DNA of 41,406 nucleotides from Omnitrophica bacterium GWA2_41_15 (GTDB lineage Bacteria; Omnitrophota; Gorgyraeia; Gygaellales; UBA12090), in contig CAKKQA010000067.1 of NCBI GenBank assembly GCA_919901925.1, positions 1,212 to 42,617 of the forward strand. Reading direction: 5' to 3'. Both the position numbers and the translations under genes were made by a program. Below, piece after piece: positions 4,194-30,914 of the stretch. The first letter of the stretch is position 1. Every line of letters begins with the position of its first letter. Under the pieces are notes generated by a model. It saw nothing but the letters and a program-made list of their open reading frames with translations. It was not told where the DNA came from and ran no database searches.

Positions 4194-4269
4194 GTTTACC
4201 GGTTTGCCGGTTGGCCAGTTAGCCGGTTTAAAAACAGACAAACTGGTAAACTGGCAAACAGGCTAACTA
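4194..4269. repeat. 8-mer inverted tandem array element, copy A
   Basis: Four GTTNRCCR units then four inverted units; right end AACTA contains the upstream gene's TAG. Confidence 0.9.
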
Positions 4270-5355
4270 ACCCCTCTTAAGCCTATCGATTATCGCCTCT
4301 GCCATTTGCTGCGTCCCGACTGCTGTCGGGTCATTACGGTCCGCTTTCAAATCATAAGTCACATACTTACCTTCCCGAATAACATCCGATACGGCCATTT
4401 CCAGGGCGTTTGCCGCTTTCGTTTCTCCGATATGCCTTAATAACAACACCCCGGACAAAATTGTCGCTGTGGGATTGACTTTGTTTAAACCTGCATATTT
4501 CGGCGCCGCTCCGTGCACCGGCTCAAAAAGGGCGATGTTCTTTCCAATGTTTGCTCCCGGAGCCAGCCCCAATCCGCCGATAAGCCCTGCGCCTAAATCC
4601 GAAATAATATCGCCGTAAAGATTTGGCAGGACAAGGACGTCAAAGTTCCTGGGATTCTTAACCAACTGCATAGAAAGATTATCCACTATCGCGTCTTCAA
4701 AAGCTATTTTTCCGGCATATTTCTTTGCCACCTTTCGCGCCGTTTCAAGAAATAACCCGTCAGTGAATTTCATTATATTCGCTTTATGCACGGCTGTTAC
4801 TTTTTTACGGTCATTCTTGACGGCGTATTCAAAAGCAAATTCAACGATCCTCTTTGAGCACTTAGGAGAAATCGGCTTTATCGAAATTGCCGAATCATGG
4901 TCAATCTTTTTCGGCTGAAGCTTTTCAATTAAACTAATAAGTTTTTTAGCCGCGGGCTTTTTACTTTCAAACTCTATCCCCGCGTATAAATCTTCCGTAT
5001 TTTCCCTGACAATCACAAAATCTACATTTTGATATCGCGAGACTACGCCGGGAATAGATTTTATCGGCCGAAGGCAGGCAAATAAATCCAATTCCTGGCG
5101 AAGCGCTACATTTACCGAACGAAAGCCGGTGCCAACAGGCGTGATTATCGGGCCTTTAATCGCCAGCTTATTTTTACGGATAGATTTTAAAACATAATCC
5201 GGCAAGGGCGTGTTATATTGCTCCAAAGCGGCAGAACCAGCGATAACTTCTTCCCATTGGAATTTTACCCCTGTTGCCTCAAGGCATTTCTTGGCGGCTA
5301 AAGCGACTTCAGGGCCAATACCATCTCCGGGAATCAATGTGACTTTATATGACAT
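4267..5355 (-). CDS. icd: Isocitrate/isopropylmalate dehydrogenase family, IDH-like
   Basis: IPGDGIGPEV, TPVGTGFRSVNVALR (IDH-type Ser/Asn), VHKANIMK, NLYGDIISDL, FEPVHG. Confidence 0.75.
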   Translation of the reverse strand: MSYKVTLIPGDGIGPEVALAAKKCLEATGVKFQWEEVIAGSAALEQYNTPLPDYVLKSIRKNKLAIKGPIITPVGTGFRSVNVALRQELDLFACLRPIKSIPGVVSRYQNVDFVIVRENTEDLYAGIEFESKKPAAKKLISLIEKLQPKKIDHDSAISIKPISPKCSKRIVEFAFEYAVKNDRKKVTAVHKANIMKFTDGLFLETARKVAKKYAGKIAFEDAIVDNLSMQLVKNPRNFDVLVLPNLYGDIISDLGAGLIGGLGLAPGANIGKNIALFEPVHGAAPKYAGLNKVNPTATILSGVLLLRHIGETKAANALEMAVSDVIREGKYVTYDLKADRNDPTAVGTQQMAEAIIDRLKRG

Positions 5356-5365
5356 GTTTTCCTTC

Positions 5366-5472
5366 CGTCATTGCGAGGAGCTTTTATTTGGTTACGGCGA
5401 CGAAGCAATCTCGTTTTAAAAACAGGATTGCTTCGTCACAGATATGCCAAGTGAGGGTTCCTCGCAATGACG
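5366..5472. repeat. CGTC-type nested palindrome, copy 1
   Basis: CGTCATTGCGAGGA...GACGAAGCAATC...GATTGCTTCGTC...TCCTCGCAATGACG. Confidence 0.92.
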
Positions 5473-5483
5473 CTGTATAAACT

Positions 5484-5987
5484 TTACAACTCTATCTTTC
5501 CGTTATGCTTCTTAATATGATTCACTATTCCGCCGTCAGAAAGCAAAACCCGCATTATATTTGACAGCGGCTCTATTTTAATCTTCAGGTTTTGCGTTGA
5601 ATCCATAATACAAGACTCCTCCACATCAATCAATAACTTATCGTTTTCCTTAATGCCAGAGGTGTCCGCGGTAATCAAGGGCAATCCGATGTTAAATCCA
5701 TTACGGTAAAAAATCCTGGCGAATGATTTTGCCACCACGCAGGCTATTCCTGCCGCTTTAATGACTAACGGCGCCTGCTCGCGCGAAGAGCCCATGCCGA
5801 AGTTTTCTCCGGCGACAATAATCGATTCTCCGGCTTTTAGCTTCTTAGGAAAATCCGGGTCAATATCTTCCATTATATGCTTAGAAAGCTCTTTCATATC
5901 GGAAATAGCAAATTTATACCGCCCGGAAATTATAAAATCGGTATTGATATTGTCCGGCAATAAAACCGCGCTGCCTTCTATTTTCAT
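5484..5987 (-). CDS. leuD: Isopropylmalate dehydratase/homoaconitase-type small subunit
   Basis: NINTDFII, AGENFGMGSSREQAP, SFARIFYRN; short (167 aa) archaeal-like type. Confidence 0.85.
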   Translation of the reverse strand: MKIEGSAVLLPDNINTDFIISGRYKFAISDMKELSKHIMEDIDPDFPKKLKAGESIIVAGENFGMGSSREQAPLVIKAAGIACVVAKSFARIFYRNGFNIGLPLITADTSGIKENDKLLIDVEESCIMDSTQNLKIKIEPLSNIMRVLLSDGGIVNHIKKHNGKIEL

Positions 5988-6003
5988 ATATTTTTAACCA
6001 CCT

Positions 6004-6110
6004 CGTCATTGCGAGGAACCCTCATTTGACATATCAGTGACGAAGCAATCTCGTTTTTAGAAACGGGATTGCTTCGTCGCTACAACCAAACGATAGCTCC
6101 TCGCAATGAC
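6004..6110. repeat. CGTC-type nested palindrome, copy 2 (inverted relative to copy 1)
   Basis: Same outer and inner arms as 5366-5472 with the order of the linkers reversed. Confidence 0.92.
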
Positions 6111-6126
6111 AAATTTTAATCTTTCT

Positions 6127-7182
6127 CTACTTCCTCATCATGTTTCTTAATTCTTCCGGATTCTTGGCCTTCTCCATAGCCGCTTCCATAGTTATAAACC
6201 CGGTTTCGTACAAATCCTTTAGCGACTTATCCATAGTATGCATACCGAATTGCCCGCCGGTTTGCATCATTGTGGGTATCTGCTCAATCTCTTGCTCCCT
6301 TATCAAATTGCGGATACCGGGGGTAGCAATCATAATCTCTGATGCCATAACCCTGGCTTTGCCATCTACCCGCGGAAGCAGCAACTGCGAAAGTACGCCC
6401 TGAAGGCAATCTGATAACTGCAGCTTGATCTGCCTCTGCTGATCCGACGGGAACACGTCGATAATCCTCTGGATAGTCTGAGGAGCATCGGGTGTATGCA
6501 ATGTCGCCAAAACCAAGTGGCCTGTTTCGGCTGCTGTCAAGGTTATCGCTATAGTCTCTAAATCGCGCATTTCACCGACGACAATGACATTGGGGTCCTG
6601 GCGCAGGGCATGGCGTAAGGCCGCGGCAAAAGACTTTGTGTCGCCGTAAACCTCGCGCTGTTTAATCACGCTTTTTTTATTGTGATGAACAAACTCTATC
6701 GGGTCCTCGATACAAAGTATCAACGATTCTCTTTCGCTGTTAATAAGGTCAACCATTGCCGCTAAAGTCGTAGTCTTACCGGCGCCAGTGGGCCCGGTAA
6801 CTAAAACCAATCCATTAGGCTTACGCGCTAAGGCCTCCGCTACCGGCGGAAGCATTAATTCCTGTATGGTAGGAATAGTCAAAGGCACTCTTCGAAATGC
6901 CGCTTCAACACAGCCCTTCTGAACATGCACATTAACCCTAAAGCGGTCTAACCCCGGAAGAGCAAGAGAAATGTCTAACTCTAATTCGCGTTCGAATTCT
7001 GTTTTCTGGTTATCGCTTAATAATGTATATATTAAACGTTTTAATTCGTCTTTATTTAACGGTTTTTGTTCGATGCGGGTCAGCCGGCCGTTAATCCTTA
7101 ATATTGGAGGTTCATTCTCTGTCAGATGCAGGTCTGACGCGGCTTTCTCAACTGTCAATGCTAACAGCTCCTTGATTTCCAT
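6127..7182 (-). CDS. pilT: Type IV pilus retraction ATPase PilT family
   Basis: ASDLHL, Walker A GPTGAGKTT, Asp box EDPIE, VGEMRD, His box TGHLVLATLHT, GIRNLIRE. Confidence 0.92.
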   Translation of the reverse strand: MEIKELLALTVEKAASDLHLTENEPPILRINGRLTRIEQKPLNKDELKRLIYTLLSDNQKTEFERELELDISLALPGLDRFRVNVHVQKGCVEAAFRRVPLTIPTIQELMLPPVAEALARKPNGLVLVTGPTGAGKTTTLAAMVDLINSERESLILCIEDPIEFVHHNKKSVIKQREVYGDTKSFAAALRHALRQDPNVIVVGEMRDLETIAITLTAAETGHLVLATLHTPDAPQTIQRIIDVFPSDQQRQIKLQLSDCLQGVLSQLLLPRVDGKARVMASEIMIATPGIRNLIREQEIEQIPTMMQTGGQFGMHTMDKSLKDLYETGFITMEAAMEKAKNPEELRNMMRK

Positions 7183-7197
7183 ATTTCATCCTCCCTA

Positions 7198-8454
7198 TTA
7201 TTTTAAATACTTACGCGGGTCCGCGATTTTACCTTCTATCGCCGAAGCGGCAGCAGTTGCCGGCGAGCTAAGATAAATGAATGCTTTGGGATTGCCCATC
7301 CTGCCGGTAAAATTACGGTTTGCCGTCGAGACAACCACTTCTCCATCCGCAGGCACGCCCTGATGCGTGCCGACGCAAGGGCCGCAACCGGGATTTAAAA
7401 CCACTGCCCCGGAGTCAATAAACGCGGCCACTAAACCTTCTTTTAAGGCTTGACGGTAAATCGACATAGACGCGGGCACAATAATTAATTTTATCCCGGA
7501 TTTTACCTGCCTACCCTTTAATATCGCCGCCGCGGCTTTTAAATCTTCCAGCCTTCCGTTTGTGCAAGTGCCGATAAAGGCTTCATTTATCGGAGTGCCT
7601 TTCAATTCCTCGACTGTAGCATAATTATCCACTGTGTGCGGCTTAGCAAGCGAAGGAATAATTTTTGACACATCATATTCTTTAATATCTTCATATTCTG
7701 CCGCTTTGTCCGCTTGGTGGACAGTATATTTCTTCTTAACCCTTTGAGCCAGCCAATTTTTTGTTTTGACATCAACCGGCATAAACGCGCATTTAGCTCC
7801 AAGTTCTACAACCATATTGCACATTGTAAACCTTCCGGACATATCCAACGCGTCAACTGCTTCTCCGTAAAACTCAATTGCTTTGTAGGCCGCGCCGTTT
7901 GCCGTAAGCTTTCCCGCGAGAAATAAAATTATATCTTTGGCATATACGCCTTTTTTCAATTCTCCTTTTAGGATTATTTTAATAGCCTGCGGCACCTTAA
8001 ACCAATTCTTGCCGGTTGCCAAAGCAACAGCCAAATCAGTAGAGCCGACTCCCGTCGATAAAGCCCCTAAAGCGCCGTAGGTGCAGGTATGCGAATCCGC
8101 GCCCAAAACCAGATAACCCGGTAAAACATGCCCGAATTCCGGGACAATCTGATGGCATACTCCGCAATTCACATCGTAAAGTTTAACATCATATTCTTCG
8201 GCAAACCCGCGCATCTTTTTCTGTACAGCCGCCGCGCCGAGATTAGGCGCCGGCGCGTTATGGTCGATCACCATGCAGAATTTCTTATTATCGAAAACTT
8301 TTTTTACGCCTATTTCTTTAATCCGGTCGATTATAATACCGCTGGTGCCATCCTGCCCAAAGCAGAAATCGATATCGCAGACAGCGAAATCTCCGGCTTT
8401 TAAAGATTTTTTAGCGTGCGCGCTTAAGATTTTTTCGGCAACTGTTTGAGCCAT
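7198..8454 (-). CDS. leuC: Isopropylmalate dehydratase/homoaconitase-type large subunit
   Basis: GADSHTCTYGA, GTCTNGR, PGCGPCVG (Fe-S cysteines), STANRNFTGRMG. Confidence 0.85.
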   Translation of the reverse strand: MAQTVAEKILSAHAKKSLKAGDFAVCDIDFCFGQDGTSGIIIDRIKEIGVKKVFDNKKFCMVIDHNAPAPNLGAAAVQKKMRGFAEEYDVKLYDVNCGVCHQIVPEFGHVLPGYLVLGADSHTCTYGALGALSTGVGSTDLAVALATGKNWFKVPQAIKIILKGELKKGVYAKDIILFLAGKLTANGAAYKAIEFYGEAVDALDMSGRFTMCNMVVELGAKCAFMPVDVKTKNWLAQRVKKKYTVHQADKAAEYEDIKEYDVSKIIPSLAKPHTVDNYATVEELKGTPINEAFIGTCTNGRLEDLKAAAAILKGRQVKSGIKLIIVPASMSIYRQALKEGLVAAFIDSGAVVLNPGCGPCVGTHQGVPADGEVVVSTANRNFTGRMGNPKAFIYLSSPATAAASAIEGKIADPRKYLK

Positions 8455-9599
8455 AACTCTAACCTGTCTATTCCCTTGCTTATTGTTTCTGTCTTCATCG
8501 CGAAGCTAAGGCGAATATAATCCTCGCATCCAAATCCCGCCCCCGGAATCACCGCGACGCCTGCTTCTTTTAACAAGGCAATCGCGAAGTCAGAAGAGTT
8601 TAGCCCTGTTTTAGAAATATCGCAAAATAAATAAAACGCGCCGTTTGGCTTGATATATTTCAAAGCGGGTATCTTATCGATGCGGCCGCAAAGATAATCT
8701 TTTCTTTTTTCAAACTCTAACCGCATTTTCTCTGTCCAATCGCCTTCTGTGGTTAAAGCGCAAAGCGCGGCCTTCTGGGCGATTGAACAAGGGTTTGATG
8801 TTGAATGATCCTGAAGGTTCTTTATTGCCTCCACTGCTTCAAGCGGGCCGGCAAAATAGCCAATACGCCAACCGGTCATAGAATAAGCTTTTGAGACGCC
8901 GTTAACCGTAAAAGTAAGGTCAAAGACTTTTTCATTAAACGACGCTATCGATACGTGAGAAAGCCCGCCGTATATCAGCTTTTCATAAATTTCGTCGGAC
9001 AAAATATATATATTATGCCTGACGCAAACATCTGCCAGGCCCTGAAGCTCTTTTTTCTCATAAACGGCACCGGCAGGATTTGACGGGCTGTTAAGAATAA
9101 AAAGTTTTGTCTTTTTTGTGATTGCTTTTTCTAACTTCTCGGGCGTGATTTTAAAACTATTCGCGGATTCTGTATAGACGAATTTAGAAACCCCTCGCGC
9201 CACAGTAACCATTTCGGGATAACTAACCCAGTAAGGAGCCGGTATAATAACCTCATCGCCTTCTTCTACCACCGCTAAAATTATATTGAAAATACAGTGC
9301 TTCGCTCCGGAAGAAACAACGGCCTGTTCCGGCGTGTAGATAAGGTTATTTTCTTTCTTGAATTTTTCGCAGATTGCTTTTTTTAATTCTATAATTCCTG
9401 TGGATGGAGTATATTTGGTAAAGCCGGCGCGGATTGCGTTTATAGCGAATTCTTTTATGTAATCAGGAGTATCAAAATCCGGCTCGCCGGCGCCAAAGCT
9501 GACAATATCTTGGCCTTCTTGTGATAATTTCTTGGCAAGCGCGGTAATTTGAAGTGTGGATGACGGATTGAGGGCTTTTACTCGTTTAGCAAGGTACAT
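8424..9599 (-). CDS. aspC: Class I PLP-dependent (aspartate) aminotransferase
   Basis: GEPDF, NSPSNPAG, SDEIY, SKAYSMTGWRIG; 31-bp overlap with leuC. Confidence 0.88.
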   Translation of the reverse strand: MYLAKRVKALNPSSTLQITALAKKLSQEGQDIVSFGAGEPDFDTPDYIKEFAINAIRAGFTKYTPSTGIIELKKAICEKFKKENNLIYTPEQAVVSSGAKHCIFNIILAVVEEGDEVIIPAPYWVSYPEMVTVARGVSKFVYTESANSFKITPEKLEKAITKKTKLFILNSPSNPAGAVYEKKELQGLADVCVRHNIYILSDEIYEKLIYGGLSHVSIASFNEKVFDLTFTVNGVSKAYSMTGWRIGYFAGPLEAVEAIKNLQDHSTSNPCSIAQKAALCALTTEGDWTEKMRLEFEKRKDYLCGRIDKIPALKYIKPNGAFYLFCDISKTGLNSSDFAIALLKEAGVAVIPGAGFGCEDYIRLSFAMKTETISKGIDRLELWLKQLPKKS

Positions 9600-9609
9600 G
9601 TATTAAAAG

Positions 9610-9637
9610 GCAGGGGACGGCAGCAACCGTCCCCTAC
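9610..9637. repeat. GTAG-type REP hairpin
   Basis: GCAGGGGACGG-CAGCAA-CCGTCCCCTAC just downstream of the rplQ stop. Confidence 0.75.
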
Positions 9638-9639
9638 GC

Positions 9640-10233
9640 TTATAATGAATCTCTTTCTTTTTTAAAGAGCTTACGTAAATTGCCTAAAAACTTCTTTGGG
9701 GCTTGAGCTTTTTTATCAACAACTTTTGATTTTTCTTCTTTTGAGGCATGCGGTTTTTCTTCATCCGCACGCAGCTTTTCTTCTGTTTCTTTATCATGCT
9801 CATGATCGTGTTCATGCTCAAGATGGCCGTGTTCATCCGCGGCCTTTGCCTTCTTTGGCTTCTTTTCTTTAACCGCGCTTTTTTCGGTAAGTTCTAAAAT
9901 AGCCATCTGCGCGTCATCGCCGCGGCGCTTGCCTAATTTTATGACTCTTGTATATCCGCTTGAGCGATTTTCAAACAACCCGACTATCTCGCTGAATAAC
10001 CTGCTTACCAGTTTATGATCCTGAAGCACGCTAAATGCTTTCCTCTTAGATGATAAACTACCCTCTTTGGCCAGTGTAATCAACTGCTCGACAAGAGGGC
10101 TTGAAGCCTTTGCCCTTGCGTGGGTAGTCCTTATCGACTGATTGATTAAAAGCGCCCGGGCAAGAGAAATTATCGTAGCTTTTCTTAAAGAACTGAACCT
10201 GTCTAAACGATTAGTTTTTACGCTGTGTCTCAT
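9640..10233 (-). CDS. rplQ: 50S ribosomal protein L17 with long charged, His-rich C-terminal extension
   Basis: MRH..., IRTTHARAK, GYTRVIKLGKRRGDDAQMAILEL; follows rpoA. Confidence 0.95.
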   Translation of the reverse strand: MRHSVKTNRLDRFSSLRKATIISLARALLINQSIRTTHARAKASSPLVEQLITLAKEGSLSSKRKAFSVLQDHKLVSRLFSEIVGLFENRSSGYTRVIKLGKRRGDDAQMAILELTEKSAVKEKKPKKAKAADEHGHLEHEHDHEHDKETEEKLRADEEKPHASKEEKSKVVDKKAQAPKKFLGNLRKLFKKERDSL

Positions 10234-10267
10234 TAATCACCTGAATCTTTAACTTATATGTTTTTGG

Positions 10268-10375
10268 CGGGCGCCATAAATGGCGCCCCTACAGACGCGT
10301 TATCAATCGACCACATTGCCGCCATGCATTGTAGGGGCCGGATTTATCCGACCCGTTGGCCAATGGCGCCCCTAC
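10268..10375. repeat. GTAG-type REP cluster
   Basis: Units at 10268-10292, 10331-10355 and a half unit at 10363-10375. Confidence 0.82.
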
Positions 10376-10389
10376 ATTACAAACGGTGT

Positions 10390-13094: not shown

Positions 13095-13125
13095 CCTTAC
13101 CGCTTAACCCTTTACCCTTAACCCT
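13095..13125. repeat. 7-mer array, single arm
   Basis: CCTTACCGCTTAACCCTTTACCCTTAACCCT; matches the right arms near 25950-25980 and 35065-35120. Confidence 0.8.
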
Positions 13126-13270: not shown

Positions 13271-13377
13271 GTCATTGCGAGGAGCTTTCGTTAGCCTGAT
13301 GCGACGAAGCAATCTCGTCTTTAAGAACGAGATTGCTTCGTCACCTATATACCAATCGAGGGTTCCTCGCAATGACG
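13271..13377. repeat. CGTC-type nested palindrome, copy 3
   Basis: GTCATTGCGAGGAGC...GACGAAGCAATCTCG...CGAGATTGCTTCGTC...GGTTCCTCGCAATGACG. Confidence 0.92.
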
Positions 13378-13611: not shown

Positions 13612-13693
13612 TAGTTAGCCAGTTTACCAGTTATCCAGTTTGCCAGTTTTTTTCCTTCAACCGGCTAACGGGCTAACCGGTAAACAGGCTAAC
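13612..13693. repeat. 8-mer inverted tandem array element, copy B
   Basis: TA-GTTAGCCA GTTTACCA GTTATCCA GTTTGCCA, short spacer, then four inverted units. Confidence 0.9.
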
Positions 13694-14450: not shown

Positions 14451-14685
14451 TATTCTCCTTCGCAAAACCAATATAAAACTATGGTATTGCTTCGGAGCAA
14501 TTATTTCATCTGTGAATATTCCTACGAAGCAATACCATAGTATTCTCTTATTTTTGCGTAGCAGAATATTCTCCTTCGCAAAACTAATAAAAAATCTGGT
14601 ATTGCTTCGGAGCAATTATTGCATCAGTGAATATTTCTGCGAAGCAATACCATAGTATTCTCTTATTTTTGCGTAGCAGAATATT
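14451..14685. repeat. Tandem dimer of a ~116-bp nested palindrome
   Basis: Units 14451-14566 and 14567-14681; each has outer arms TATTCT..CGCAAAA/TTTTGCG..AGAATA and inner arms TGGTATTGCTTCG/CGAAGCAATACCA. Confidence 0.92.
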
Positions 14686-16668: not shown

Positions 16669-16706
16669 TAACCGGTAAACTGGCTAACCGGTTAACCGGT
16701 TAACTA
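16669..16706. repeat. 8-mer array, single arm, copy C
   Basis: TAACCGGT AAACTGGC TAACCGGT TAACCGGT TAACTA; the final CTA is the rplO stop. Confidence 0.88.
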
Positions 16707-18062: not shown

Positions 18063-18597
18063 TCGTCGCGGCCTTTCCCAATTTCCTACGCACCTGTTCG
18101 CCAACGTAACGAATACCCTTACCTTTATACGGTTCCGGCGGGAAAATCCTGCGTATCTGGGAAGCGACTTCTCCGACTCTTTGTTTATCAATTCCTCTTA
18201 TTACTATACTAGTCGGCTTTGGCGTCTCGATTTTAATATCCGCCGGTATCGGAAAGTTAACAGGGTGAGAAAAACCCAGGATCAAAGTCAGATTATTTCC
18301 GTTAACAGCGGCGCGAAAACCAACGCCTTGAATTTCCATCTCTTTGGAAAAACCTTCAGAAACACCCTTAATCATATTATTAATAAGGCTGCGTGTCAAC
18401 CCGTGCAAGGATCTATCAACCCTTGACCGCAAAGGAGATTTGACAACGATTTGATTGTCACTTGACTCAACATTAACCCTGCCCGGGCATTCAAAAAATA
18501 ACTTCCCTTTTGATCCTTCTACGGTAATCGCGCTATCTTTAATATTAACTTTCACGCCCGAAGGGACTGTGATTATTTTTTTACCTATTCTAGACAT
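18058..18597 (-). CDS. rplF: 50S ribosomal protein L6
   Basis: MSRIGK, LGFSHP, PPEPYKGKGIRY. Confidence 0.98.
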   Translation of the reverse strand: MSRIGKKIITVPSGVKVNIKDSAITVEGSKGKLFFECPGRVNVESSDNQIVVKSPLRSRVDRSLHGLTRSLINNMIKGVSEGFSKEMEIQGVGFRAAVNGNNLTLILGFSHPVNFPIPADIKIETPKPTSIVIRGIDKQRVGEVASQIRRIFPPEPYKGKGIRYVGEQVRRKLGKAATK

Positions 18598-18629
18598 TTT
18601 TTATATTTTATATTATGCTTTGAATGCGT

Positions 18630-19031
18630 TTACCAGATGTAACAAATAACTTCTCCGCCTATTTTCTGTTCTCTTGCCTGTCTATCTGTCATCAGGCCCT
18701 TAGAAGTTGTAATAATCGAAATGCCGTAACCTTTCAACACATAAGGCACTTTATCTTTTTTAGCATAAAGCCTTAAACCCGAGCGGGAAGCCCTGCGTAA
18801 ACCCTTAATAACCGCGGTACCATCCGTATCATACTTCGGATAAACTTTTATAGTCTTACGGCCTGTTTGCGCGTCTTGTTCCCTGTAATTTTCCAAATAA
18901 CCTCTATCCTTCATGATTTCTATAATCGCTTTATTAGTTTTAGAAGCAGTAACTACCACAGAGTCCTTATTAACCATAATAGCGTTCCTGATCATTGTCA
19001 GCATTTCTGCTATAGAATCTGTCCGTGCCAT
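18630..19031 (-). CDS. rpsH: 30S ribosomal protein S8
   Basis: DSIAEMLTMIRNA, TSKGLMTD, GGEVICYIW. Confidence 0.97.
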   Translation of the reverse strand: MARTDSIAEMLTMIRNAIMVNKDSVVVTASKTNKAIIEIMKDRGYLENYREQDAQTGRKTIKVYPKYDTDGTAVIKGLRRASRSGLRLYAKKDKVPYVLKGYGISIITTSKGLMTDRQAREQKIGGEVICYIW

Positions 19032-20227: not shown

Positions 20228-20320
20228 TAGTTAGCCAGTTAGCCAGTTGACCAGTTGACCAGTTAGCGGTTAATTTTGTCTTTTAACCGGCAAACTGGTG
20301 AACAGGTTAACCGGAAAACC
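20228..20320. repeat. 8-mer inverted tandem array element, copy D
   Basis: Left units GTTAGCCA/GTTGACCA, spacer GCGGTTAATTTTGTCTTT, four inverted units. Confidence 0.9.
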
Positions 20321-20334
20321 AAAAGATTTATAAA

Positions 20335-20703
20335 CTAAATAACTTCCGGCGCCAATGATACTATTTTCATGAAATTCTTATCCCGCAATTCTCTTGCCAC
20401 CGGGCCAAATACGCGTGTTCCCCTGGGATTACCTTGCACGTCGATAAGCACAATCGCGTTATTGTCAAACCTTAAATATGAGCCGTCCGGCCTTTTAATC
20501 GCTTTTTTAGTCCGCACAATCACAGCCCTTGCCTTCTCGCCTTTTTTTACCGCGGCATCAGGAACTGATTCTCTGACAGCCACATTAATAACTTCAGCGA
20601 TATTAGCGTACTTACAATTCTTCTTGCCCAAAACGCCTATATAATAAGCCTTTTTGGCCCCTGTATTATCTGCCACGTCTAAAAGTGTCTTTAAGAATAT
20701 CAT
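20335..20703 (-). CDS. rplN: 50S ribosomal protein L14
   Basis: [39 protein letters not shown]. Confidence 0.98.
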
Positions 20704-20705
20704 GT

Positions 20706-20806
20706 TAGTTACCCGGTTACCCGGTTACCCAGTTACCCTGTTACCCTGTTGGCGGTTATTTTTATCTTTTAACCGGCAAACTGGCAAACAGGTTAACTGG
20801 CTAACT
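20706..20806. repeat. 8-mer inverted tandem array element, copy E
   Basis: Five GTTACCCN units, spacer GCGGTTATTTTTATCTTT, inverted units; includes the last codon and TAG of rpsQ. Confidence 0.9.
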
Positions 20807-21058
20807 TGCATTATTTTTTTTGACAATTTCTAACAAACGCCAGCATTTTTCTTTTGACAACGGTTTTGTCTCAATAATCTTTACTCCATCGCCGATTTTC
20901 GCGCTATTCTCTTCGTCGTGCGCTTTATACTTCTTGAATTTCTTGATGGTTTTGCCGTAATTTGGATCCTTGGTCAGCCTTTCCACGCGGACCACAATCG
21001 TCTTTTTCATCTTATCGCTTACTACAATCCCTGCCCTGATCTTTTTGTTGCTTCTCAT
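20801..21058 (-). CDS. rpsQ: 30S ribosomal protein S17
   Basis: [26 protein letters not shown]. Confidence 0.97.
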
Positions 21059-21065: not shown

Positions 21066-21159
21066 TAGTTAGCCAGTTAACCAGTTAGCCAGTTAGCCAG
21101 TTAGCGGTTAATTTTATCTTTTAACCGGTAAACTGGCAAACAGGCTAACTAGCTAACTA
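21066..21159. repeat. 8-mer inverted tandem array element, copy F
   Basis: TAGTTAGCCA...GCGGTTAATTTTATCTTT TAACCGGT...TAACTA. Confidence 0.9.
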
Positions 21160-21793: not shown

Positions 21794-22474
21794 TTATGCT
21801 ATTGGCGTTCCTTGAGATACAACAGGCTTCTTTTGCTGTTTAGGAGTAAAGAAAATATCTCCTTTATATACCCAAGCCTTTACTCCTATAAGGCCGTAAG
21901 TGGTCATGGCCTCTGTAAAACCGTAATCTATGTCAGCCCTTAAAGTAGATAAAGGAATTTTGCCTTGTTTGTATGTTTCCGTGCGTGACATCTCCGCGCC
22001 GCCTAACCTTCCGGCCGCGGAAATCTTAATCCCTTTTGCCCCAGACTGCATAGCCTGTTCTATCGCCCTCTTCATAGCCCTGCGAAAAGCGATTCTTTTT
22101 TCCAGCTGTAAAGCGACATTTTCCGCGATCAATTGAGCTTCAACGGATGGCTCCTTGACTTCGATTATGTCTACAGCCAATTCCTGTTTTAATAATCCGT
22201 TAAGATCCTCGCGCAGCTTTTCAATATCCGCGCCATGGCGGCCGATTATAAGCCCGGGCCTGGCGGAATGTATCTTAATTCTGATTTTATCCGTCATCCT
22301 TTCAATAATTATCCGGGCTATTGCCGCCTGCTTAAATCTCTTCTTTATAAGACGGCGCACCTTATAATCTTGTTCTATGAATTTAGCGTAATCCTGCCTT
22401 TTGGAATACCAGACACTCAGCCAATTTTTTGTATATCCTATTCTTTGTAATAACGGACTAACTTTTTGTCCCAT
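21794..22474 (-). CDS. rpsC: 30S ribosomal protein S3
   Basis: MGQKV, RPGLIIG, GRLGGAEMSR, TLRADIDYG. Confidence 0.98.
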   Translation of the reverse strand: MGQKVSPLLQRIGYTKNWLSVWYSKRQDYAKFIEQDYKVRRLIKKRFKQAAIARIIIERMTDKIRIKIHSARPGLIIGRHGADIEKLREDLNGLLKQELAVDIIEVKEPSVEAQLIAENVALQLEKRIAFRRAMKRAIEQAMQSGAKGIKISAAGRLGGAEMSRTETYKQGKIPLSTLRADIDYGFTEAMTTYGLIGVKAWVYKGDIFFTPKQQKKPVVSQGTPIA

Positions 22475-22497: not shown

Positions 22498-22551
22498 AGG
22501 TTAAAGGTGAAAGGTTTTAGGTGAAAGGAAATAAAACACCTTTAACCTTTT
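22498..22551. repeat. 7-mer inverted array, variant unit AGGTKAA
   Basis: AGGTTAA AGGTGAA AGGTTTT AGGTGAA AGG-spacer-CACCTTTAACCTTT; contains the rplV stop. Confidence 0.75.
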
Positions 22552-24050: not shown

Positions 24051-24088
24051 CTTCTTTTATGATTGATTCCTTAAGCTAAACCCTAAAT

Positions 24089-24373: not shown

Positions 24374-24383
24374 CTTTTTTTAT

Positions 24384-25055
24384 TTATATTTGTACTCTGT
24401 GTTTTAAGATACTAAGCGCGTCTTTTAATATAATCACCTTCGAGCTTTTCATAACATCCAGCGCGTTTAAACATCCTGCCTCCTGAATAACCAAACCCGG
24501 AATATTTCTTGAGGCGCGCCTTATCGCGTTATCCTTACTTTTTAAAACGATCAAAGCCTTACTGCCGCTTTTAAGGAAATTCAATATTTTTTGAATATCT
24601 TTTGTCTTGGCAATTTTATCGCTGGGAATCTCTTCCAACACAACCACTTTATGTTCGCTCTTTTCAATCAACGCCGACAGAAGAGCAAGCTTCTTTATTT
24701 TTGGAGATAACGTGTAGCTAAAATCTCTCGGATGCGGCCCAAAAACCACGCCACCGTGGCGCCACAAAGGAGAACGTATAGACCCGGCCCTTGCCCTGCC
24801 TGTGCCTTTTTGCTTCCAAGGCTTTTTTCCGCCGCCTGAGACTTCACCAATTGTTTTAGTCGAGGCAAGCCCTTTGCGTTGATTGGCAAGGTACATTTTA
24901 ATAGTTTCGGTCAATACAGGATGATTTACCTTGCCGCCAAAAGGCGACTTTATTTCTTCGATCTTTTGGCCAGAAACATTATAGATAACTAAAGTATTTT
25001 CTTTCTCCGGCATTTTCTCTTTTGTTTGCTTTGCTTTGAGTTCTTTTATTGGCAT
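24384..25055 (-). CDS. rplD: 50S ribosomal protein L4
   Basis: VSGGGKKPWKQKGTGRARAGSIRSP, GGVVFGP; exact start uncertain. Confidence 0.97.
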   Translation of the reverse strand: MPIKELKAKQTKEKMPEKENTLVIYNVSGQKIEEIKSPFGGKVNHPVLTETIKMYLANQRKGLASTKTIGEVSGGGKKPWKQKGTGRARAGSIRSPLWRHGGVVFGPHPRDFSYTLSPKIKKLALLSALIEKSEHKVVVLEEIPSDKIAKTKDIQKILNFLKSGSKALIVLKSKDNAIRRASRNIPGLVIQEAGCLNALDVMKSSKVIILKDALSILKHRVQI

Positions 25056-25072
25056 TGTTGTCCTATTCCCCG

Positions 25073-25774
25073 TTATTTTTTCACAGAGGCGCTTTGCTTC
25101 TTGGCATCTTTCTTCCCGGCTTCAGCTTTTTGTTCGGCTATTATCGGCCGGATAACCTGGCGTGTATGTTTTGTAGTTTTACGCACAATCAAATAACTAT
25201 TCTTATGCCCAGGGACAGCACCTTTGACTATCAGAAGATTATTCTCCGGATCAACTTTTATTACCCGTAGGCCGCTGACCGTCACCGCTATGTTACCCAT
25301 ATGCCCGGGCATGTGATGCCCTTTAATAGTCCTGCCGGGAGTGGTGCTTGAGCCGATTGAACCTGCACGGCGATGGCTTGTTGAACCGTGAGTTTTCGGG
25401 CCGCCATCCCAATGCCAGCGCTTCATGCCGCCCTGAAAGCCTTTACCTATGGAAATCCCCGAACAATCAACTTTTTCATTAGGCGTGAACACATCAACTT
25501 TTATTTCCTGGCCAACCTGATATTGTTGATCTTTTACTTTAGGGACTTCTTTCAAAAACTTTCTGGGCTTGACATTGGCCTTCTTAAACAAACCCATCCG
25601 GGGTTTCGAAACTGCTTTTTCTTTGACGTCGCCAAAACCAAGCAACACACTCTTCTCTTTAACCGCGATAACCAAACAAGGCCCTGCTTCAATAACAGTC
25701 ACAGGGACTATCCTGCCTGAATCGTCGAATATTTGAGTCATTCCTATTTTCTTGCCTAATAATCTTATAGTCAT
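25073..25774 (-). CDS. rplC: 50S ribosomal protein L3
   Basis: GKKIGMTQ, GKGFQG, MPGHMG, VKGAVPG. Confidence 0.98.
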   Translation of the reverse strand: MTIRLLGKKIGMTQIFDDSGRIVPVTVIEAGPCLVIAVKEKSVLLGFGDVKEKAVSKPRMGLFKKANVKPRKFLKEVPKVKDQQYQVGQEIKVDVFTPNEKVDCSGISIGKGFQGGMKRWHWDGGPKTHGSTSHRRAGSIGSSTTPGRTIKGHHMPGHMGNIAVTVSGLRVIKVDPENNLLIVKGAVPGHKNSYLIVRKTTKHTRQVIRPIIAEQKAEAGKKDAKKQSASVKK

Positions 25775-25831
25775 TTTTTTAATATATACTCGTTGTATAT
25801 CAAAAATTAATGCCCAGTTAAGGTTATGTCG

Positions 25832-25981
25832 AGGGTTAAGTGATAAGGGTAAAGGGTTACATAGGGTTAAGGGGTCAGGGTTAAGTGATAAGGAAAAGAA
25901 CAGAATATTAAAAAATACCCTATTTCTCCTTTTTTGTTTTTTATTTTTTCCTTACCGCTTAACCCTTACCGCTTACCCCTA
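25832..25981. repeat. 7-mer inverted tandem array element
   Basis: AGGGTTA/AGTGATA units, A-rich then T-rich spacer, CTTACCG/CTTAACC units; ends in the rpsJ TAG. Confidence 0.88.
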
Positions 25982-26278
25982 CTTTATCTCCGCGTCAACA
26001 CCCGCCGGCAGATTAAGTTTGCGCAAGGCATCGATTGTCTTTGACGTAGGTTCCCTTAATTCCAAAAGCCGCTTATGCGTAATAAGGTAGAACTGTTCAC
26101 GCGACTTTTTATCAATTACCGGGGAACGGTTTACAGTGTAAATCTCCCGTTTAACCGGTAAAGGTATAGGGCCCGAAACTACTGCTCCGCTTTTTTTGGC
26201 GGTCTCGACAATTTCCTCCACTGCCTGATCTAACAAGCGGTGGTCATATGCCTTTAGTTTTATTCTTATTTTTTGCAT
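25979..26278 (-). CDS. rpsJ: 30S ribosomal protein S10
   Basis: [32 protein letters not shown]. Confidence 0.98.
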
Positions 26279-26290
26279 GTATTCTCGATT

Positions 26291-26317
26291 GTAGGGGCAC
26301 GGCTGCCGTGCCCCTAC
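26291..26317. repeat. GTAG-type REP, perfect hairpin
   Basis: GTAGGGGCACGGC-T-GCCGTGCCCCTAC between tuf and rpsJ. Confidence 0.85.
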
Positions 26318-26324
26318 GGCGTAT

Positions 26325-27527
26325 TTACGCTATTATCTCCGAAACAACTCCCGCACCGACGGTATGCCCGCCTTCACGGATAGCAAAACGTGATTCTTTT
26401 TCCATAGCAATAGGCATAATCAGCTCAATTTCCAAATTGACGTTATCACCGGGCATAACCATTTCAACTCCTTCAGGAAGTTTCGCGCTTCCGGTAACAT
26501 CTGTGGTACGGAAATAAAACTGCGGGCGGTAACCGTTAAAAAACGGCGTGTGCCTTCCGCCTTCTTCCTTGGTCAAAATGTAAATCTGGGCCTTGAATTT
26601 GGTATGCGGCGTGATGGAACCGGGCGCTGCCAAAACCATGCCTCTTTCAAGAGTACTCTTATCAACGCCTCTTAAAAGCAAGCCGACATTATCGCCGGCT
26701 AACCCTTCATCAAGAAGCTTACGGAACATTTCAATGCCCGTAACAACCGTCTTGGTAACTTCAGGCTTCATACCGACGATATCAACGTTTTCATTAATCT
26801 TGACCTTACCGCGTTCAATCCTTCCGGTACCGACTGTCCCGCGGCCTTCGATTGAGAAAACATCTTCGATTGCCATCAAGAACGGCTTTTCAAGGTCTCT
26901 TTTCGGCAAAGGTATGAAGTCATCAACCGCTTTCATCAAATCGATTATTGGCTTGCAACTGGGGCAATCATCTTTTCCACAGGCGCAATTCATCGCGTTT
27001 AACGCCGAACCTTTGATAATAGGCGTTTTATCGCCGGGGAAATTATATTTTGTCAAAAGGTCCCTGACTTCCATCTCGACAAGGTCAATAAGCTCTTTGT
27101 CTTCGACCATATCAACCTTATTCATAAATACAACCATTGACGGAACGTTAACCTGACGGGCAAGTAGTATATGCTCTCTTGTCTGAGGCATCGGGCCGTC
27201 CGCCGCTGACACGACTAATATTGCCCCGTCCATCTGGGCCGCGCCGGTAATCATATTCTTGATGTAGTCGGCGTGTCCCGGGCAGTCGATGTGCGCGTAA
27301 TGCCGGGCCACTGTCTGATATTCAACGTGAGAAATATTTATCGTAACGCCGCGCTCTCTTTCTTCGGGAGCGTTATCGATTGAATCGTATGCCCTTGCTT
27401 CTGCCAGCCCTCTTTTGCTTAATACCATCGTTATCGCCGATGTGAGGGTTGTTTTACCATGATCAACGTGGCCGATGGTTCCGATATTAACATGTGGTTT
27501 TGACCTAACAAATTTTTCTTTAGCCAT
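26325..27527 (-). CDS. tuf: Elongation factor Tu
   Basis: [35 protein letters not shown]; SD AGGAGG upstream. Confidence 0.99.
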
Positions 27528-27567
27528 TATCCACCTCCTATTAAGTTATTGTTTAAAACCCTTGGTT

Positions 27568-29673
27568 TCATTTAGCGCCAAATCTCTGAGTACTTGCCCC
27601 GGAACTACGCTCTATAATTTTCTGCGCGATATGTGAAGGCACCTCTTGATAGAACGAGGGCTCCATTGTATAAGTAGCTCTGCCTTGAGTCAAAGACCTG
27701 ATCACCGTCGCGTAATTAAAGATTTCAGACAACGGGACATTACAACGTATAAGCCTTGTATTTAAACGCTGGCCGAGTGAAATTATTTTGGCCCGCCGAG
27801 AATTCAAATCGCCGATAATCGCGCCCATATACTCTTCCGGGACGATTACCTCCATATCCATAATAGGCTCTAATATCTTACAAGATGCCTTTCTTAAGCC
27901 GTCAGTAAAAGCAATTGAAGCGGCCATCTGAAAAGCAAGCTCCGATGAATCGACGTCGTGAAATGACCCGTCAATCAAAGTTACCGCCACGTCAACAACA
28001 GGATATCCGGCCAAGATCCCGCTTTTCGCGCTTATCATTACGCCGTTTCTGATTGACGGCACAAATTCTCTTGGAATAGCCCCGCCTTTTAATTTGTCCT
28101 CAAAGGTAATGCCGGCGCCGGGAGTTTCCTGCGGCTGCATTTCAAAAACAACATGGCCATATTGCCCGCGGCCGCCCGATTGTTGAATAAACTTTCCCGT
28201 GGAAATTAATTTCTTAGTCAGAGTCTCTTTATAAGCGACCTGCGGCTGGCCGACACTGCAATCGACGCTAAATTCCCTCAATAACCTATCAACAAGTATA
28301 TCCAAATGCAACTGGCCCATTCCGGAAATTATGGTCTGTCCCGTATCGTGATTATAAGTAACCCGAAACGACGGATCCTCGTCGGTAAGTTTCTTTAATG
28401 CCATACCCATTTTTTCCTGGTCAGACTTGCTCTTCGGCTCTATCGCCTGAGAAATAACCGGCTCGGGGAAATGCATTGCCTCAAGTATTATCGGGTCTTT
28501 TTCGGTACACAATGTGTCGCCGGTCTTGGTTTCTTTTAAACCGACAACCGCGCAAATATCGCCGGTTGCCACTTCATCGATAATCTCTTGCCTGTTAGCG
28601 TGCATAAGCACAATCTTGGTAACTCTCTCTTTTTCCCTCTTTGCCGCATTGTAAATGTATGTGCCTGAAGAAAGCACTCCTGAATAAACCCTCACATAAT
28701 TAAGCCTTCCGACATATGGGTCAGTGGCAACCTTAAAACATAAACCGCAAAACGGCGCTTCATCGTTTACATTGCGTTCGATGTATTCATCGGTTTTAGG
28801 ATTAGTGCCCTTTACAGTTCCAACGTCCCCAGGCGCCGGCAAATACCAGCAAACCGCATCGAGTACATGCTGTACGCCTTTATTCTTAAAAGCCGAGCCG
28901 CAAAAAACAGGGACGAACGCGTTTTTCAAAACTGCCCTGCGCACTGCTTTCTTTATTATCTCTTTTTCCGGATATTTACCCTCAACGAAAAAGCTCATTA
29001 CCTCTTCATCAGCTTCAGCCAAATGCTCAAAAAGCTTGTCCTTCGCTTCTTTAACTTTACCATTCATCTCTTCGGGCACCTCCACCCAATTAAATTCTTT
29101 TCCGGTGGGGTCATCATACAGGCAAAGCTTATCCTCTATTAAATCTATCGTCCCTTTAAAATCATCTTCAGTCCCATAAGGAAGCTGTACTGCCGCGGCA
29201 TTAGCTCCCAGGCGCTCATGTATCTGCTTTAACGTCTCGGCAAAATCAGCTGCCGGACGGTCCATCTTATTAACAAAACATATGCGCGGGACATTATACC
29301 TATCGGCCTGGCGCCAGACTGTCTCTGACTGCGGTTCTACGCCGTTTACCGCGTCAAAAAGCACTATCGCGCCGTCTAATACTTTCAATGAACGCTCTAC
29401 CTCGATTGTAAAATCAACGTGCCCGGGAGTATCAATTATATTTATACGGCAATCCTGCCAAAAGCAGGTTGTACAGGCTGAAGTAATCGTGATTCCGCGC
29501 TCCTGTTCCTGAACCATCCAATCCATTACAGCAGTGCCTTCATGGACCTCACCGATTTTATAGGTTTTGCCCGTATAAAAAAGTATTCGTTCGGTAGTTG
29601 TCGTCTTGCCCGCGTCTATGTGAGCGACGATACCTATGTTTCTAATTTTATCTATTGGATATTGACGTTTCAT
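27568..29673 (-). CDS. fusA: Elongation factor G
   Basis: [41 protein letters not shown]. Confidence 0.99.
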
Positions 29674-29682
29674 TATATTCTG

Positions 29683-29747
29683 GTAGGGGCAGGCCTATGT
29701 GTCTGCCCTTTATCCATATTAGGGCGAACACATAGGTTCGCCCCTAC
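29683..29747. repeat. GTAG-type REP doublet (REPIN-like)
   Basis: GTAGGGGCAGGCCTATGTGTCTGCCC...GGGCGAACACATAGGTTCGCCCCTAC. Confidence 0.88.
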
Positions 29748-29764
29748 AATTATTTCTTCTACCG

Positions 29765-30235
29765 TTACCATCTTAAATGCGCGAACGCCTTGTTGCTTTC
29801 TGCCATCTTATGCATATCATCGCGCTTCTTTATTGCCGAACCTTCGCCTTTATAACTAAACATTAATTCTTCCGCTAGCTTTTCAACCATCGCCTTGCCT
29901 TTTTTCCCGCGGGCAAAATCACGCATCCAGCGCATCGCGATCGAATTGCCTCTTTCCTGCTTAACCTCAACGGGAACCTGATAGGTGGCTCCGCCGACAC
30001 GGCGCGGCTTAACTTCCAAACGCGGCCTGACATTATCAATTGCCTTGTGAAAGATCTTCAAAGCATCCGGCTCGTTAAGCTTTTGTTTGACAATATCAAA
30101 CGCTCCATAGACAATTGTCTCTGCCGTAGACTTTTTTCCTCTCTCCATAACCATATTGATAAACTTGGCCACGGTCTTACTGTTATATTTCGGATCCGCC
30201 AATATTTCTCTTTTTCCAACTCTTCTTCGTCTCAT
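29765..30235 (-). CDS. rpsG: 30S ribosomal protein S7
   Basis: GKKSTAE, RRVGGATYQVP, HKMAESNKAFAH. Confidence 0.98.
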   Translation of the reverse strand: MRRRRVGKREILADPKYNSKTVAKFINMVMERGKKSTAETIVYGAFDIVKQKLNEPDALKIFHKAIDNVRPRLEVKPRRVGGATYQVPVEVKQERGNSIAMRWMRDFARGKKGKAMVEKLAEELMFSYKGEGSAIKKRDDMHKMAESNKAFAHLRW

Positions 30236-30240
30236 CTTTT

Positions 30241-30378
30241 TAGTTAACCAGTTAGCCTGTTTACCAGTTTGCCAGTTTACTTGGTAAACTACTAATAGCT
30301 TTTATTTTTTCCTGTTATTTTTTTTAAAATTTAACCTGGCCAACCGGCTAACTGGCCAACCGGCTAACCGGCCAACTA
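30241..30378. repeat. 8-mer inverted tandem array element, copy G
   Basis: TAGTTAACCA..., ~55-bp AT-rich spacer, ...GGCCAACTA; the final CTA is the rpsL stop. Confidence 0.92.
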
Positions 30379-30747
30379 CTTAGGCCTTTTAGCCCCATAC
30401 TTAGAACGCGATTTCTTTCTATTCGCGACTCCGGCTGTATCCAAAGTACCGCGGACAATATGATACCTTACTCCGGGCAAATCCTTAACCCTGCCGCCTC
30501 TTACCAAAACTATTGAATGTTCCTGTAAATTATGGCCTTCACCGGGTATATAACAGGTTGCCTCAATGCCTGTTGTAAGCCTGACCCTGGCTATTTTACG
30601 CAGGGCCGAGTTTGGCTTCTTAGGCGTCATCGTCTTAACCTGCAGGCAAACGCCTCTTCTTTGCGGGCATGCTTTTAACGCCGGCGACTTTGATTTTTTC
30701 TTCTTTAAAACTCTTCCCTTCCTGATTAATTGAGAGATCGTAGGCAT
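30376..30747 (-). CDS. rpsL: 30S ribosomal protein S12
   Basis: [24 protein letters not shown]. Confidence 0.99.
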
Positions 30748-30753
30748 TTTTTT

Positions 30754-30914
30754 TAGTTTACCGGTTAGCCAGTTTACCAGTTAGCCAGTTAATTTGGTAA
30801 GCTGCTAATAGATTTTAATTTTTTTGTTGTTTATTTTTAAACTTTAACCGGCCAACCGGCTAACCGGCCAACCGGCTAACTGGCCAACCGGCTAACTGGC
30901 CAACCGGCTAACTA
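30754..30914. repeat. 8-mer inverted tandem array element, copy H
   Basis: Four left units, spacer homologous to copy G, eight right units of the YAACYGGC type, ending AACTA. Confidence 0.92.

Follow-up and report, generated by a model that had tools for sequence, protein, structure and literature searches.

Octamer inverted arrays at gene junctions of an uncultured Omnitrophota genome are probably cargo-less copies of a recently expanded foldback family associated with PF05635 genes

According to passages of one account, the intervening sequence (IVS) of the Coxiella 23S rRNA is a selfish element whose terminal stem measures 28 bp and in which two to three tandem GACAGAT heptamers precede an S23p open reading frame (ORF), and it is excised by RNase III; the same passages call the origin of the 23S IVS and the function of its S23p protein unclear (PMC4990558). 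Heptamer arrays of the unit GGGAATC occur in Xanthomonas as 70-75 convergent pairs per genome between aligned ORFs, and are read as G-quadruplexes in the relevant passages of the report (Rehm et al. 2015, PMC4692102). Direct repeats of TAACTGA occur in Beggiatoaceae, Cyanobacteria and Bacteroidetes and, as presented in parts of a third source, adjoin start codons without a Shine-Dalgarno motif in Beggiatoaceae (MacGregor 2015, PMC4679880). In this study, we analysed a family of octamer inverted arrays in a 41,406-nt stretch of DNA (the window; contig CAKKQA010000067.1 of assembly GCA_919901925.1) from Omnitrophica bacterium GWA2_41_15. We consider it likely that its eight array loci are cargo-less copies, resembling MITEs (miniature inverted-repeat transposable elements), of a recently expanded foldback family, the full form of which carries a PF05635 (S23p/IVP) gene between the same arrays. 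Foldback transposons, found in Drosophila and other eukaryotes, have long inverted arms made of tandem short repeats, and some of their copies have a coding part in the centre whereas others have none.

The source genome, here G000, is a metagenome-assembled genome of an uncultured groundwater Candidatus Omnitrophota (1.788 Mb, 201 contigs, 43% G+C, 90.5% complete), and its rplN is matched best by other Candidatus Omnitrophota genomes, with identities reaching 75%. It was compared with an order set of 41 genomes (G000 and 40 relatives) and a control set of 14 genomes. On the mRNA strand, all eight window loci consist of tandem (GTTNNCCN)3-8, an A/T-rich loop and (NGGNNAAC)3-6, seven of them being paired and one single-armed, and the elements comprise 63-157 bp of tandem units. 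The consensus of a paired element is usually TA, 3-8 GTTNNCCN, the loop, 3-6 NGGNNAAC, usually TA, a few A and then ATG; in the window, the loops of paired elements start with GTTRAAA and finish with TTTTAAC. An earlier note, made from the letters of the window alone, had listed eight octamer-array loci with inverted arms, one of them single-armed, and these were borne out by reading the minus strand, by a genome scan and by Tandem Repeats Finder, which reported a period of 8 or 16 at every one of the eight. The loci are given below together with the state of the site in the X3 relative, which is about 95% identical to G000.

4194..4267, minus strand: octamer element from icd (TAG 4269-4267) to mdh (ATG 4182), with 4 + 4 units around a 10-nt loop, the distal end being degenerate; -33.9 kcal/mol, z -4.6.
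13614..13693, minus strand: octamer element from map (TAA 13708-13706) to infA (ATG 13607), with 4 + 4 units; -44.7 kcal/mol, z -8.0.
16673..16704, minus strand: single forward arm of about 4.6 units from rplO (TAG 16706-16704) to secY (ATG 16656), the GGTTAACC-type units being self-complementary.
20230..20319, minus strand: octamer element from rplN (TAG 20337-20335) to rplX (ATG 20224); site empty in the X3 relative.
20708..20805, minus strand: octamer element from rpsQ (TAG 20803-20801, within the first unit) to rplN (ATG 20703); empty in the X3 relative.
21068..21157, minus strand: octamer element from rpmC to rpsQ (ATG 21058); -52 kcal/mol, z -8.9; presumably absent from the X3 relative.
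30243..30376, minus strand: octamer element from rpsL (TAG 30378-30376) to rpsG (ATG 30235), with a 54-nt loop; empty in the X3 relative.
30756..30912, minus strand: octamer element from rpoC (TAA 30918-30916) to rpsL (ATG 30747), with 8 + 4 units and a 61-nt loop; empty in the X3 relative.

The suggestion that these elements fill the space between one stop codon and the next start codon held for most of the junctions. The TAG stops of icd, rplO and rpsL directly abut the first GTT, that of rpsQ lies inside the first unit, and the rpoC TAA is 1 nt upstream of TAGTT. The gap from AACTA to ATG, mostly of A, is 4 nt for infA, 3 for rplX, 2 for rplN, 7 for rpsQ, 5 for rpsG and 6 for rpsL, and a Shine-Dalgarno motif was not found before any of these six genes. 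The suggestion failed at map, whose TAA is 12 nt upstream of the element, and at the mdh copy, which has no distal AACTA. The 5' arm of the rplN/rplX element is prolonged to the stop codon by two decayed in-phase units, and neighbouring window copies have homologous loops.

The full form is present in G000 on contig C138, between gspF and gspG, where seven forward units and GGAG precede a PF05635 ORF (E 6.5e-28; TIGR02436) that is followed by five reverse units. It is the only PF05635 copy found within octamer arrays in G000, as against 45 cargo-less pairs. Genes for closely related PF05635 proteins are likewise enclosed by octamer arrays in G027, G023 and G010, which represent three further families of the order; in G023, four GTTATCCG-type units lead into a 123-aa ORF, after which come four inverse units and an ATG. 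A tie to four-helix-bundle genes like that of the 23S IVS, which had been mentioned in the earlier note, is substantiated by these same 8-mer arrays around a PF05635 gene in four genomes. PF05635 was matched in 25 of the 41 order genomes and in 1 of the 14 control genomes, and inverted short-period arrays flank 26 of the 33 PF05635 genes examined in the order (25 with period 7 or 8, one with period 10), the unit differing between PF05635 copies. The four octamer-flanked proteins lie in one 5-tip clade (support 0.88), and the octamer label requires 2 changes on the PF05635 tree vs a shuffled mean of 3.9, with 4 of 2000 shuffles as good, on a midpoint-rooted FastTree in which related sequences share labels. 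Left out of this tree were G027_L248, G041_L273 (internal stops), L267, L275, L282, L289, L264, L288 and a weak second G000 match on C95. As an observation in its own right, the gspG gene downstream of the C138 cargo element (L239, 606-1490) has no start codon of its own and forms a 265-aa in-frame fusion with the PF05635 ORF and the reverse array, its prepilin cleavage motif lying directly after the array peptide.

Arrays of this kind are found in other phyla as well. Among 160 ribosomal-protein (r-protein) loci from other bacteria, 16 contain inverted heptamer arrays in their junctions; in a Phycisphaerales locus, for example, a TAG is followed by four GGGTTCA units, then the loop, four units in inverse orientation and the ATG. 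No PF05635 gene was detected inside these 160 loci by tblastn. PF05635 genes number 3-16 in each of five genomes from other phyla (three Pyrinomonadaceae, one Phycisphaerales and one Thermoanaerobaculia), and period-7 inverted arrays flank 16 of the 19 PF05635 genes examined there. In all five, at least one of the PF05635-flanking units is also the unit of cargo-less arrays in r-protein junctions, so that a unit common to both forms is seen within genomes of Omnitrophota, Planctomycetota and Acidobacteriota. This within-genome sharing of units is the strongest evidence in favour of the view that cargo-less arrays and PF05635 elements belong together.

The X3 relative, whose contigs come from sequencing run X3 of another study than the likely source, indicates when the window copies were acquired. 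Its flanking genes show 43 differences over 1062 nt and 71 over 1276 nt, and its single contigs cross four of the junctions without octamer elements:

rplN/rplX junction: window 20228-20341 replaced by 9 letters in the X3 relative.
rpsQ/rplN junction: window 20704-20815 replaced by 37 letters in the X3 relative.
rpsL/rpsG junction: window 30236-30394 replaced by 38 letters in the X3 relative.
rpoC/rpsL junction: window 30752-30937 replaced by at least 40 letters in the X3 relative.

By contig arithmetic, we infer that a fifth element, the 21068 copy, is missing from this relative too. On the mRNA strand, its rpsL ends ...YGAKRPK, TAA and a 19-nt spacer carrying AAGGAG, and its rpoC/rpsL spacer terminates in GAGG. 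The rpsQ, rplN and rplX junctions are tight in all eight other loci examined, six of which are titled Omnitrophota, and the rpoC/rpsL and rpsL/rpsG junctions measure -4 to 30 nt in most of 29 order genomes. Matches to the four-unit pattern are patchy across the order (83 in G000, 24 in G011, 11 in G023, 6 in G024) and number 0 in eight same-family genomes; the G024 elements include one at rpsL/rpsG with the same ends as in G000. From these comparisons, the octamer elements are judged to have been gained recently, at four or more sites and presumably a fifth, within about 5% divergence. The alignment of the junctions in relatives thus answers in favour of a non-autonomous repeat that has lately been spreading in gene junctions, which had been among the proposals made from the letters. 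Such hairpins also break assemblies, as seen in contigs of run X2 that end near octamer elements.

The ends of the elements give some indication of the target. Of the 40 intergenic copies, TA stands ahead of GTT in about 22 and behind AAC in about 17, by counts made by eye, TA being palindromic. At rpsL/rpsG, G037 has TAAAAGATG vs ...AAC followed by TAAAAAGATG in G000, and at rplN/rplX the X3 relative has TAAATAAAATG vs TAG...AAC followed by TAAAAATG in G000. Both comparisons appear to fit, inexactly, an insertion at the TA of a TAA stop that leaves TA on both sides.

Across G000, a scan for arms of at least three units, with one mismatch allowed per unit, gave 54 forward and 54 reverse arms vs 0 and 0 in a third-order Markov shuffle of the genome. 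These arms assemble into 45 paired copies and 18 single arms, with a modal length of four units (60 of 108 arms). Their polarity is fixed, because a reverse arm follows within 130 nt in 47 of the 54 forward arms and the opposite order occurs at only 1 of the 54 reverse arms, where two elements are neighbours. Forty of the pairs are intergenic and five lie within ORFs. A copy was counted as flanked if an ORF of at least 50 aa ends -40 to +30 nt from the first unit and another of at least 50 aa starts -12 to +80 nt from the last unit, both on one strand. Of the 40 intergenic copies, 31 are flanked on both sides in this way, and one further copy in the genome encloses the PF05635 ORF. Among the 31, the commonest stop position is TA followed by a G that is the first base of the first unit (10 copies), TAG serves as the stop in 16 vs 25% genome-wide, and the median distance from element to start codon is 9 nt. 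Gene calls came from a home-made codon-score caller, so genome-wide distances and Shine-Dalgarno rates are approximate; in the window this caller missed rpsL, rplV and rpsN and added two spurious ORFs. A bias toward co-directional gene pairs was considered and rejected, because 1219 of the 1277 G000 junctions are co-directional (32 convergent, 26 divergent; crude calls) and such flanks are expected.

A simple property of the unit bears on this placement. An ORF entering a GTTAGCCN array stops within 24 nt, because 8 mod 3 = 2 and TAG comes up in all three frames in every three units. We suggest that the elements would spread as DNA, apparently into TA and often the TA of a TAA stop, leaving TA-GTT...AAC-TA. 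The fit from stop to start would then be largely a by-product, with ORFs that run into GTTAGCCN arrays ending at the array edge, and the surviving insertions would be those that leave the next start codon a few nt past the foot of the stem. There, a ribosome terminating at the stem foot might melt the stem and free the start codon, so that translation would become coupled and the Shine-Dalgarno motif could decay. In short, the fit would arise because of built-in TAG codons, an apparent TA/A-rich target and survival only with downstream translation. As a working guess, the pentameric four-helix-bundle protein may bind its cognate tandem units.

Within ORFs, survival would be expected only of in-frame, stop-free copies in tolerant loops. 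In-frame octamer copies with short loops are found in KdtA, Asd, UvrA and a 1210-aa ORF, the last with two complete copies and half of a third. All of them use the frame GTT AGC CAG TTA GCC AGT, and their third unit has TTG, TGG or TCG, never TAG. The in-ORF copies confirm the rule that TAG-bearing arrays end ORFs. In UvrA, the element (contig C186:44698-44768) adds 17 residues relative to solved UvrA structures and to four same-family genomes. In Asd, the best PDB hit has an equally long segment, and this comparison therefore shows no insertion. When the UvrA segment was aligned from 30 order genomes, eight had 16-21 extra residues at the same site and the four same-family genomes had none. 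These inserts are hairpin-forming inverted arrays, of octamers in G000, G024, G010 and G012, of heptamers in G029, G037 and G020, and of another palindrome in G011, and five of them are exactly 54 nt long. The UvrA site is either a hot spot that was struck repeatedly or an old insert that has been rewritten in place. As to the 1210-aa ORF (contig C100:32227-35859), we observed that it has a weak PGI match only and that each of its octamer elements is bordered on both sides by a similar CTTCGCCGG stretch.

Several observations weigh against a mobile foldback family. TA is its own reverse complement, so that TA at both ends would look the same as a stem longer by 2 bp, and the empty sites are not plain versions of G000 with the element removed, as their 19-25 nt spacers are absent from G000. 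The loops gave no significant alignment with the C138 cargo (p 0.2-0.97), and we rejected the idea that they are remnants of its internal deletion. G024, which is 95% complete, has octamer elements and no PF05635 match. PF05635 proteins have, to our knowledge, no known function in mobility and are not a known transposase. No transposase was found in association with the arrays: matches to IS630-type DDE_3 number 0 in G000, G011, G023 and G024, and Y1/RAYT genes (REP-associated tyrosine transposases, after repetitive extragenic palindromic sequences) occur in 32 of the 41 genomes irrespective of arrays, the three G000 copies being on contigs without an octamer element. Neither IS630 nor RAYT was retained as a partner enzyme. 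Finally, three findings could reflect selection for a host function instead of passive survival. The window, with 2.3% of the genome, holds 7 of the 45 paired copies (p = 7e-5), 29 of 36 loops are rich in A on the sense strand, and other lineages carry arrays of different units at the same junctions and at the UvrA codon site (at rpoC/rpsL or rpsL/rpsG apparently in G029, G004 and G031, each with its own arrays).

The window's share of copies, the A-rich loops and the occupied junctions would suit a translational device selected by the host, in which the hairpin juxtaposes the upstream stop and the downstream start and ribosomes re-initiate, setting r-protein stoichiometry without Shine-Dalgarno motifs. 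So would the occupation of rpsL/rpsG in G024, the short spacer left besides the element (median 15 nt vs 46 nt at other co-directional junctions; p = 0.027, crude gene calls) and the rarity of Shine-Dalgarno-like motifs ahead of element-following genes (2 of 31 vs 378 of 1141, or 33%, in the background; p = 8e-4). As RNA, the seven paired window copies do form a fold, with energies of -33.9 to -62.5 kcal/mol, z of -3.7 to -8.9 and none of 200 shuffles matching, the last copy having been folded with part of its 3' arm missing, and this agrees with the long hairpin that had been predicted for the arms. Compensatory pairing, named at the outset as a sign of function, was looked for and not found. 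Watson-Crick pairing is 75.6% between an element's own arms vs 79.4% between arms from different elements, on which ground element-specific pairing was rejected; the arms pair because of the five fixed bases per unit. Selection on the sense-strand RNA was likewise rejected, since strand energies are mixed and wobble-compatible mismatches number 76 on the sense strand vs 91 on the antisense, with no sense-strand G:U excess. The variable position 4 favours A on the sense strand in both arms (87 A:44 T in the 5' arm, 77:63 in the 3' arm), at a cost to pairing, and A-rich loops are as much in line with leaders being A-rich in general here as with a function. A hairpin that carries an upstream Shine-Dalgarno motif to the start codon was also considered and rejected, as the motif precedes the 5' arm in 4 of 31 copies vs 25% of gene tails, not a significant difference. 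Moreover, a relative of about 95% identity does without the elements and has ordinary AAGGAG or GAGG spacers instead, eight same-family genomes are without them, and copies also occur within ORFs and around the cargo gene. We consider such a device unlikely. Coupled translation may plausibly follow from the presence of the elements; a host function in that coupling is possible, with no positive support.

RNA processing had also been raised in the earlier note; on this reading the stems would be cut by RNase III, as in the 23S IVS, and the cistrons thereby separated. The stems exceed 22 bp, and RNase III cuts IVS stems with tandem heptamers in Coxiella and other bacteria, according to passages of the source (PMC4990558). 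The enzyme models PF14622 and TIGR02191 had no match in the 41 order genomes (24 of them high-quality), and PF00636 had none in G000, whereas RNase III models match in 8-9 of the 14 control genomes and in all five array-bearing genomes of other phyla. Since no RNase III gene was found in the order, we regard processing of the stems by this enzyme as very unlikely here; cutting would, in addition, destroy mRNAs whose ORFs carry in-frame copies. The lack of a detected RNase III may, conversely, be one reason why long mRNA stems are tolerated in this order. One RNA run (X11) gave short pieces of the window only, two of them exact (18549-18720 and 21997-22234), none of which spans an element.

Alternatively, the arrays could be neutral minisatellites that arise on the spot and lengthen there through replication slippage and hairpin-templated correction, with no transposition involved. 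Unit number does differ between arms, the UvrA site has a differing unit and period per lineage within an often equal 54-nt insert, and recent slippage is implied by the 5' arm of the rpoC/rpsL element, a 16-mer present in 4.3 copies at 98% identity (30845-30913). Growth in place would hardly account for five fixed bases shared by over 50 loci and by none in shuffles, for constant polarity and homologous loops among neighbouring copies, for the presence of the same arrays, in four families of the order, around a conserved gene, or for at least four gains, and by inference five, within about 5% divergence, and we find this explanation quite improbable. G-quadruplex-forming repeats, as proposed for the Xanthomonas GGGAATC arrays, can be set aside almost entirely: the architecture given in passages of that report does match (convergent pairs between aligned ORFs, first array at or over the stop, four units preferred; PMC4692102) and a 7-mer family of the window has GGG runs, but a canonical quadruplex is impossible for the octamer because neither arm has a run of three G.

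The window contains other repeats. Its genes, all on the minus strand, are rplKAJL, rpoBC, rpsLG, fusA, tuf, the S10/spc/alpha operons, icd and mdh, and Pfam supports the names mdh, icd, infA, map, secY, rplO, rplX, rplN, rpsQ, rpmC, rpsG, rpsL, rpoC and rpoB. No Rfam family matched within it, and the best relative in a metagenome contig collection had 75% protein identity only. A second family consists of inverted 7-mer arrays, GGGTTAA or GCGGTAA and then CTTAACC, with the G-rich arm first after the stop codon. GGGTTAA-type arms give 119 partly overlapping matches in G000, and there are four occurrences in the window:

25832..25977, minus strand: 7-mer inverted arrays at the rpsJ/rplC junction.
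34972..35121, minus strand: 7-mer inverted arrays at the rpoB/rpoC junction, the 3' arm reaching the rpoC start.
13095..13125, minus strand: single G-rich 7-mer arm after rpmJ.
22498..22528, minus strand: single C-rich 7-mer arm before rpsC; in the X4 relative this junction is 11 nt with GAGGAG.

A G000 PF05635 gene on contig C193 is flanked by heptamers of the GGGTTAA type. Between infA and rpmJ, at 13271-13376 on the minus strand, lies a palindromic repeat, GTCATTGCGAGGA...TCCTCGCAATGAC, around an inner hairpin, and partial copies of it precede icd (about 5356-5400) and the gene at 5484-5987. REP-like, GTAG-tagged hairpins of the form GTAGGGGC...GCCCCTAC stand at about 26291-26317, 29674-29713 and 9600-9639, upstream of rpsJ, fusA and one further gene; the three Y1/RAYT-type genes of G000 are on other contigs. 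A 115-bp unit occurs twice (93% identity) at 14451-14685, between map and adk, with an inverted repeat in each unit.

The same arrays flank PF05635 genes and occur, gene-less and by the dozen, in operon junctions and essential ORFs. Annotation is affected as well: these hairpins shift stop codons, do away with Shine-Dalgarno motifs and lengthen proteins such as UvrA by extra peptides. It is tempting to go further and to propose that PF05635 pentamers are sequence-specific binders of 7-8-nt tandem units, the modal 4-5 units matching the five subunits of the ring, and that they and the arrays form a widespread, unrecognised foldback class of bacterial mobile DNA that includes the 23S IVS, the Xanthomonas arrays and the Omnitrophota hairpins. 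We put this forward tentatively, as an idea that may well prove too broad. A literature search, which covered mostly titles and the openings of abstracts with subscription journals largely outside it, returned no link between IVS-S23p, heptamer arrays and cargo-less arrays, and no octamer form.

Compared with known systems, the octamer elements share features with several. An intrinsic terminator does not describe them, as an A run and not a U run follows the stem on the sense strand. Nor do they resemble REP sequences or bacterial interspersed mosaic elements (20-40 bp palindromes with a GTAG/CGTC tag and a RAYT flanked by REPs), since RAYT genes do not adjoin them. Rickettsia palindromic elements, which Ogata and colleagues are said to have described in 2000, are reportedly inserted in frame in housekeeping ORFs and translated. 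The UvrA copy is likewise an in-frame, translated insertion in a conserved ORF. The arms of the Rickettsia elements are not known to be made of tandem short units, and we know of no cargo-bearing form of them. Like MITEs, the octamer elements have terminal inverted repeats, many similar copies and presence or absence between close relatives; the autonomous, transposase-encoding partner of a MITE was not found, and the only cargo is PF05635. Foldback transposons differ in being eukaryotic and far larger and in having a known transposase partner.

With the TAACTGA repeats, to judge from passages of the source, they share units that end a few nt before start codons, a rarity of Shine-Dalgarno motifs, occurrence in r-protein operons, stops in all frames of one orientation and a patchy distribution, whereas the TAACTGA units are direct repeats with one inverted case, of period 7, and predicted to be unstructured (MacGregor 2015, PMC4679880). 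The likeness to the Xanthomonas arrays, again as far as passages of that report go, lies in a first array within 50 bp of the stop codon or over it, a preference for four units and the absence of an associated insertion sequence; the GGGAATC arrays differ in their period of 7 and their G-rich unit, and the passages neither connect them with a cargo gene nor describe copies in frame within housekeeping ORFs (Rehm et al. 2015, PMC4692102). The octamers lack the period of 7 and the four or more G3 tracts of that type, and the second window family has period 7 with GGG.

The 23S IVS is located in a 23S rRNA helix, whereas the window copies lie between or inside protein genes. As set against passages of the IVS account, the octamer copies occupy mRNA junctions and protein ORFs rather than 23S helices, are mostly without an ORF and have an 8-nt unit (PMC4990558). 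What is alike, within the same passages, is a long stem built of terminal inverted repeats, a variable number of short tandem units next to an ORF, and the same cargo family (PMC4990558). A long stem from terminal inverted repeats is found in 7 of the 7 paired window copies, and full-length copies in G000 and its relatives have a PF05635 ORF between the same arms. The S23p-encoding IVS and the Xanthomonas heptamer arrays without a mobile partner have been known separately, and both meet in the elements described here.

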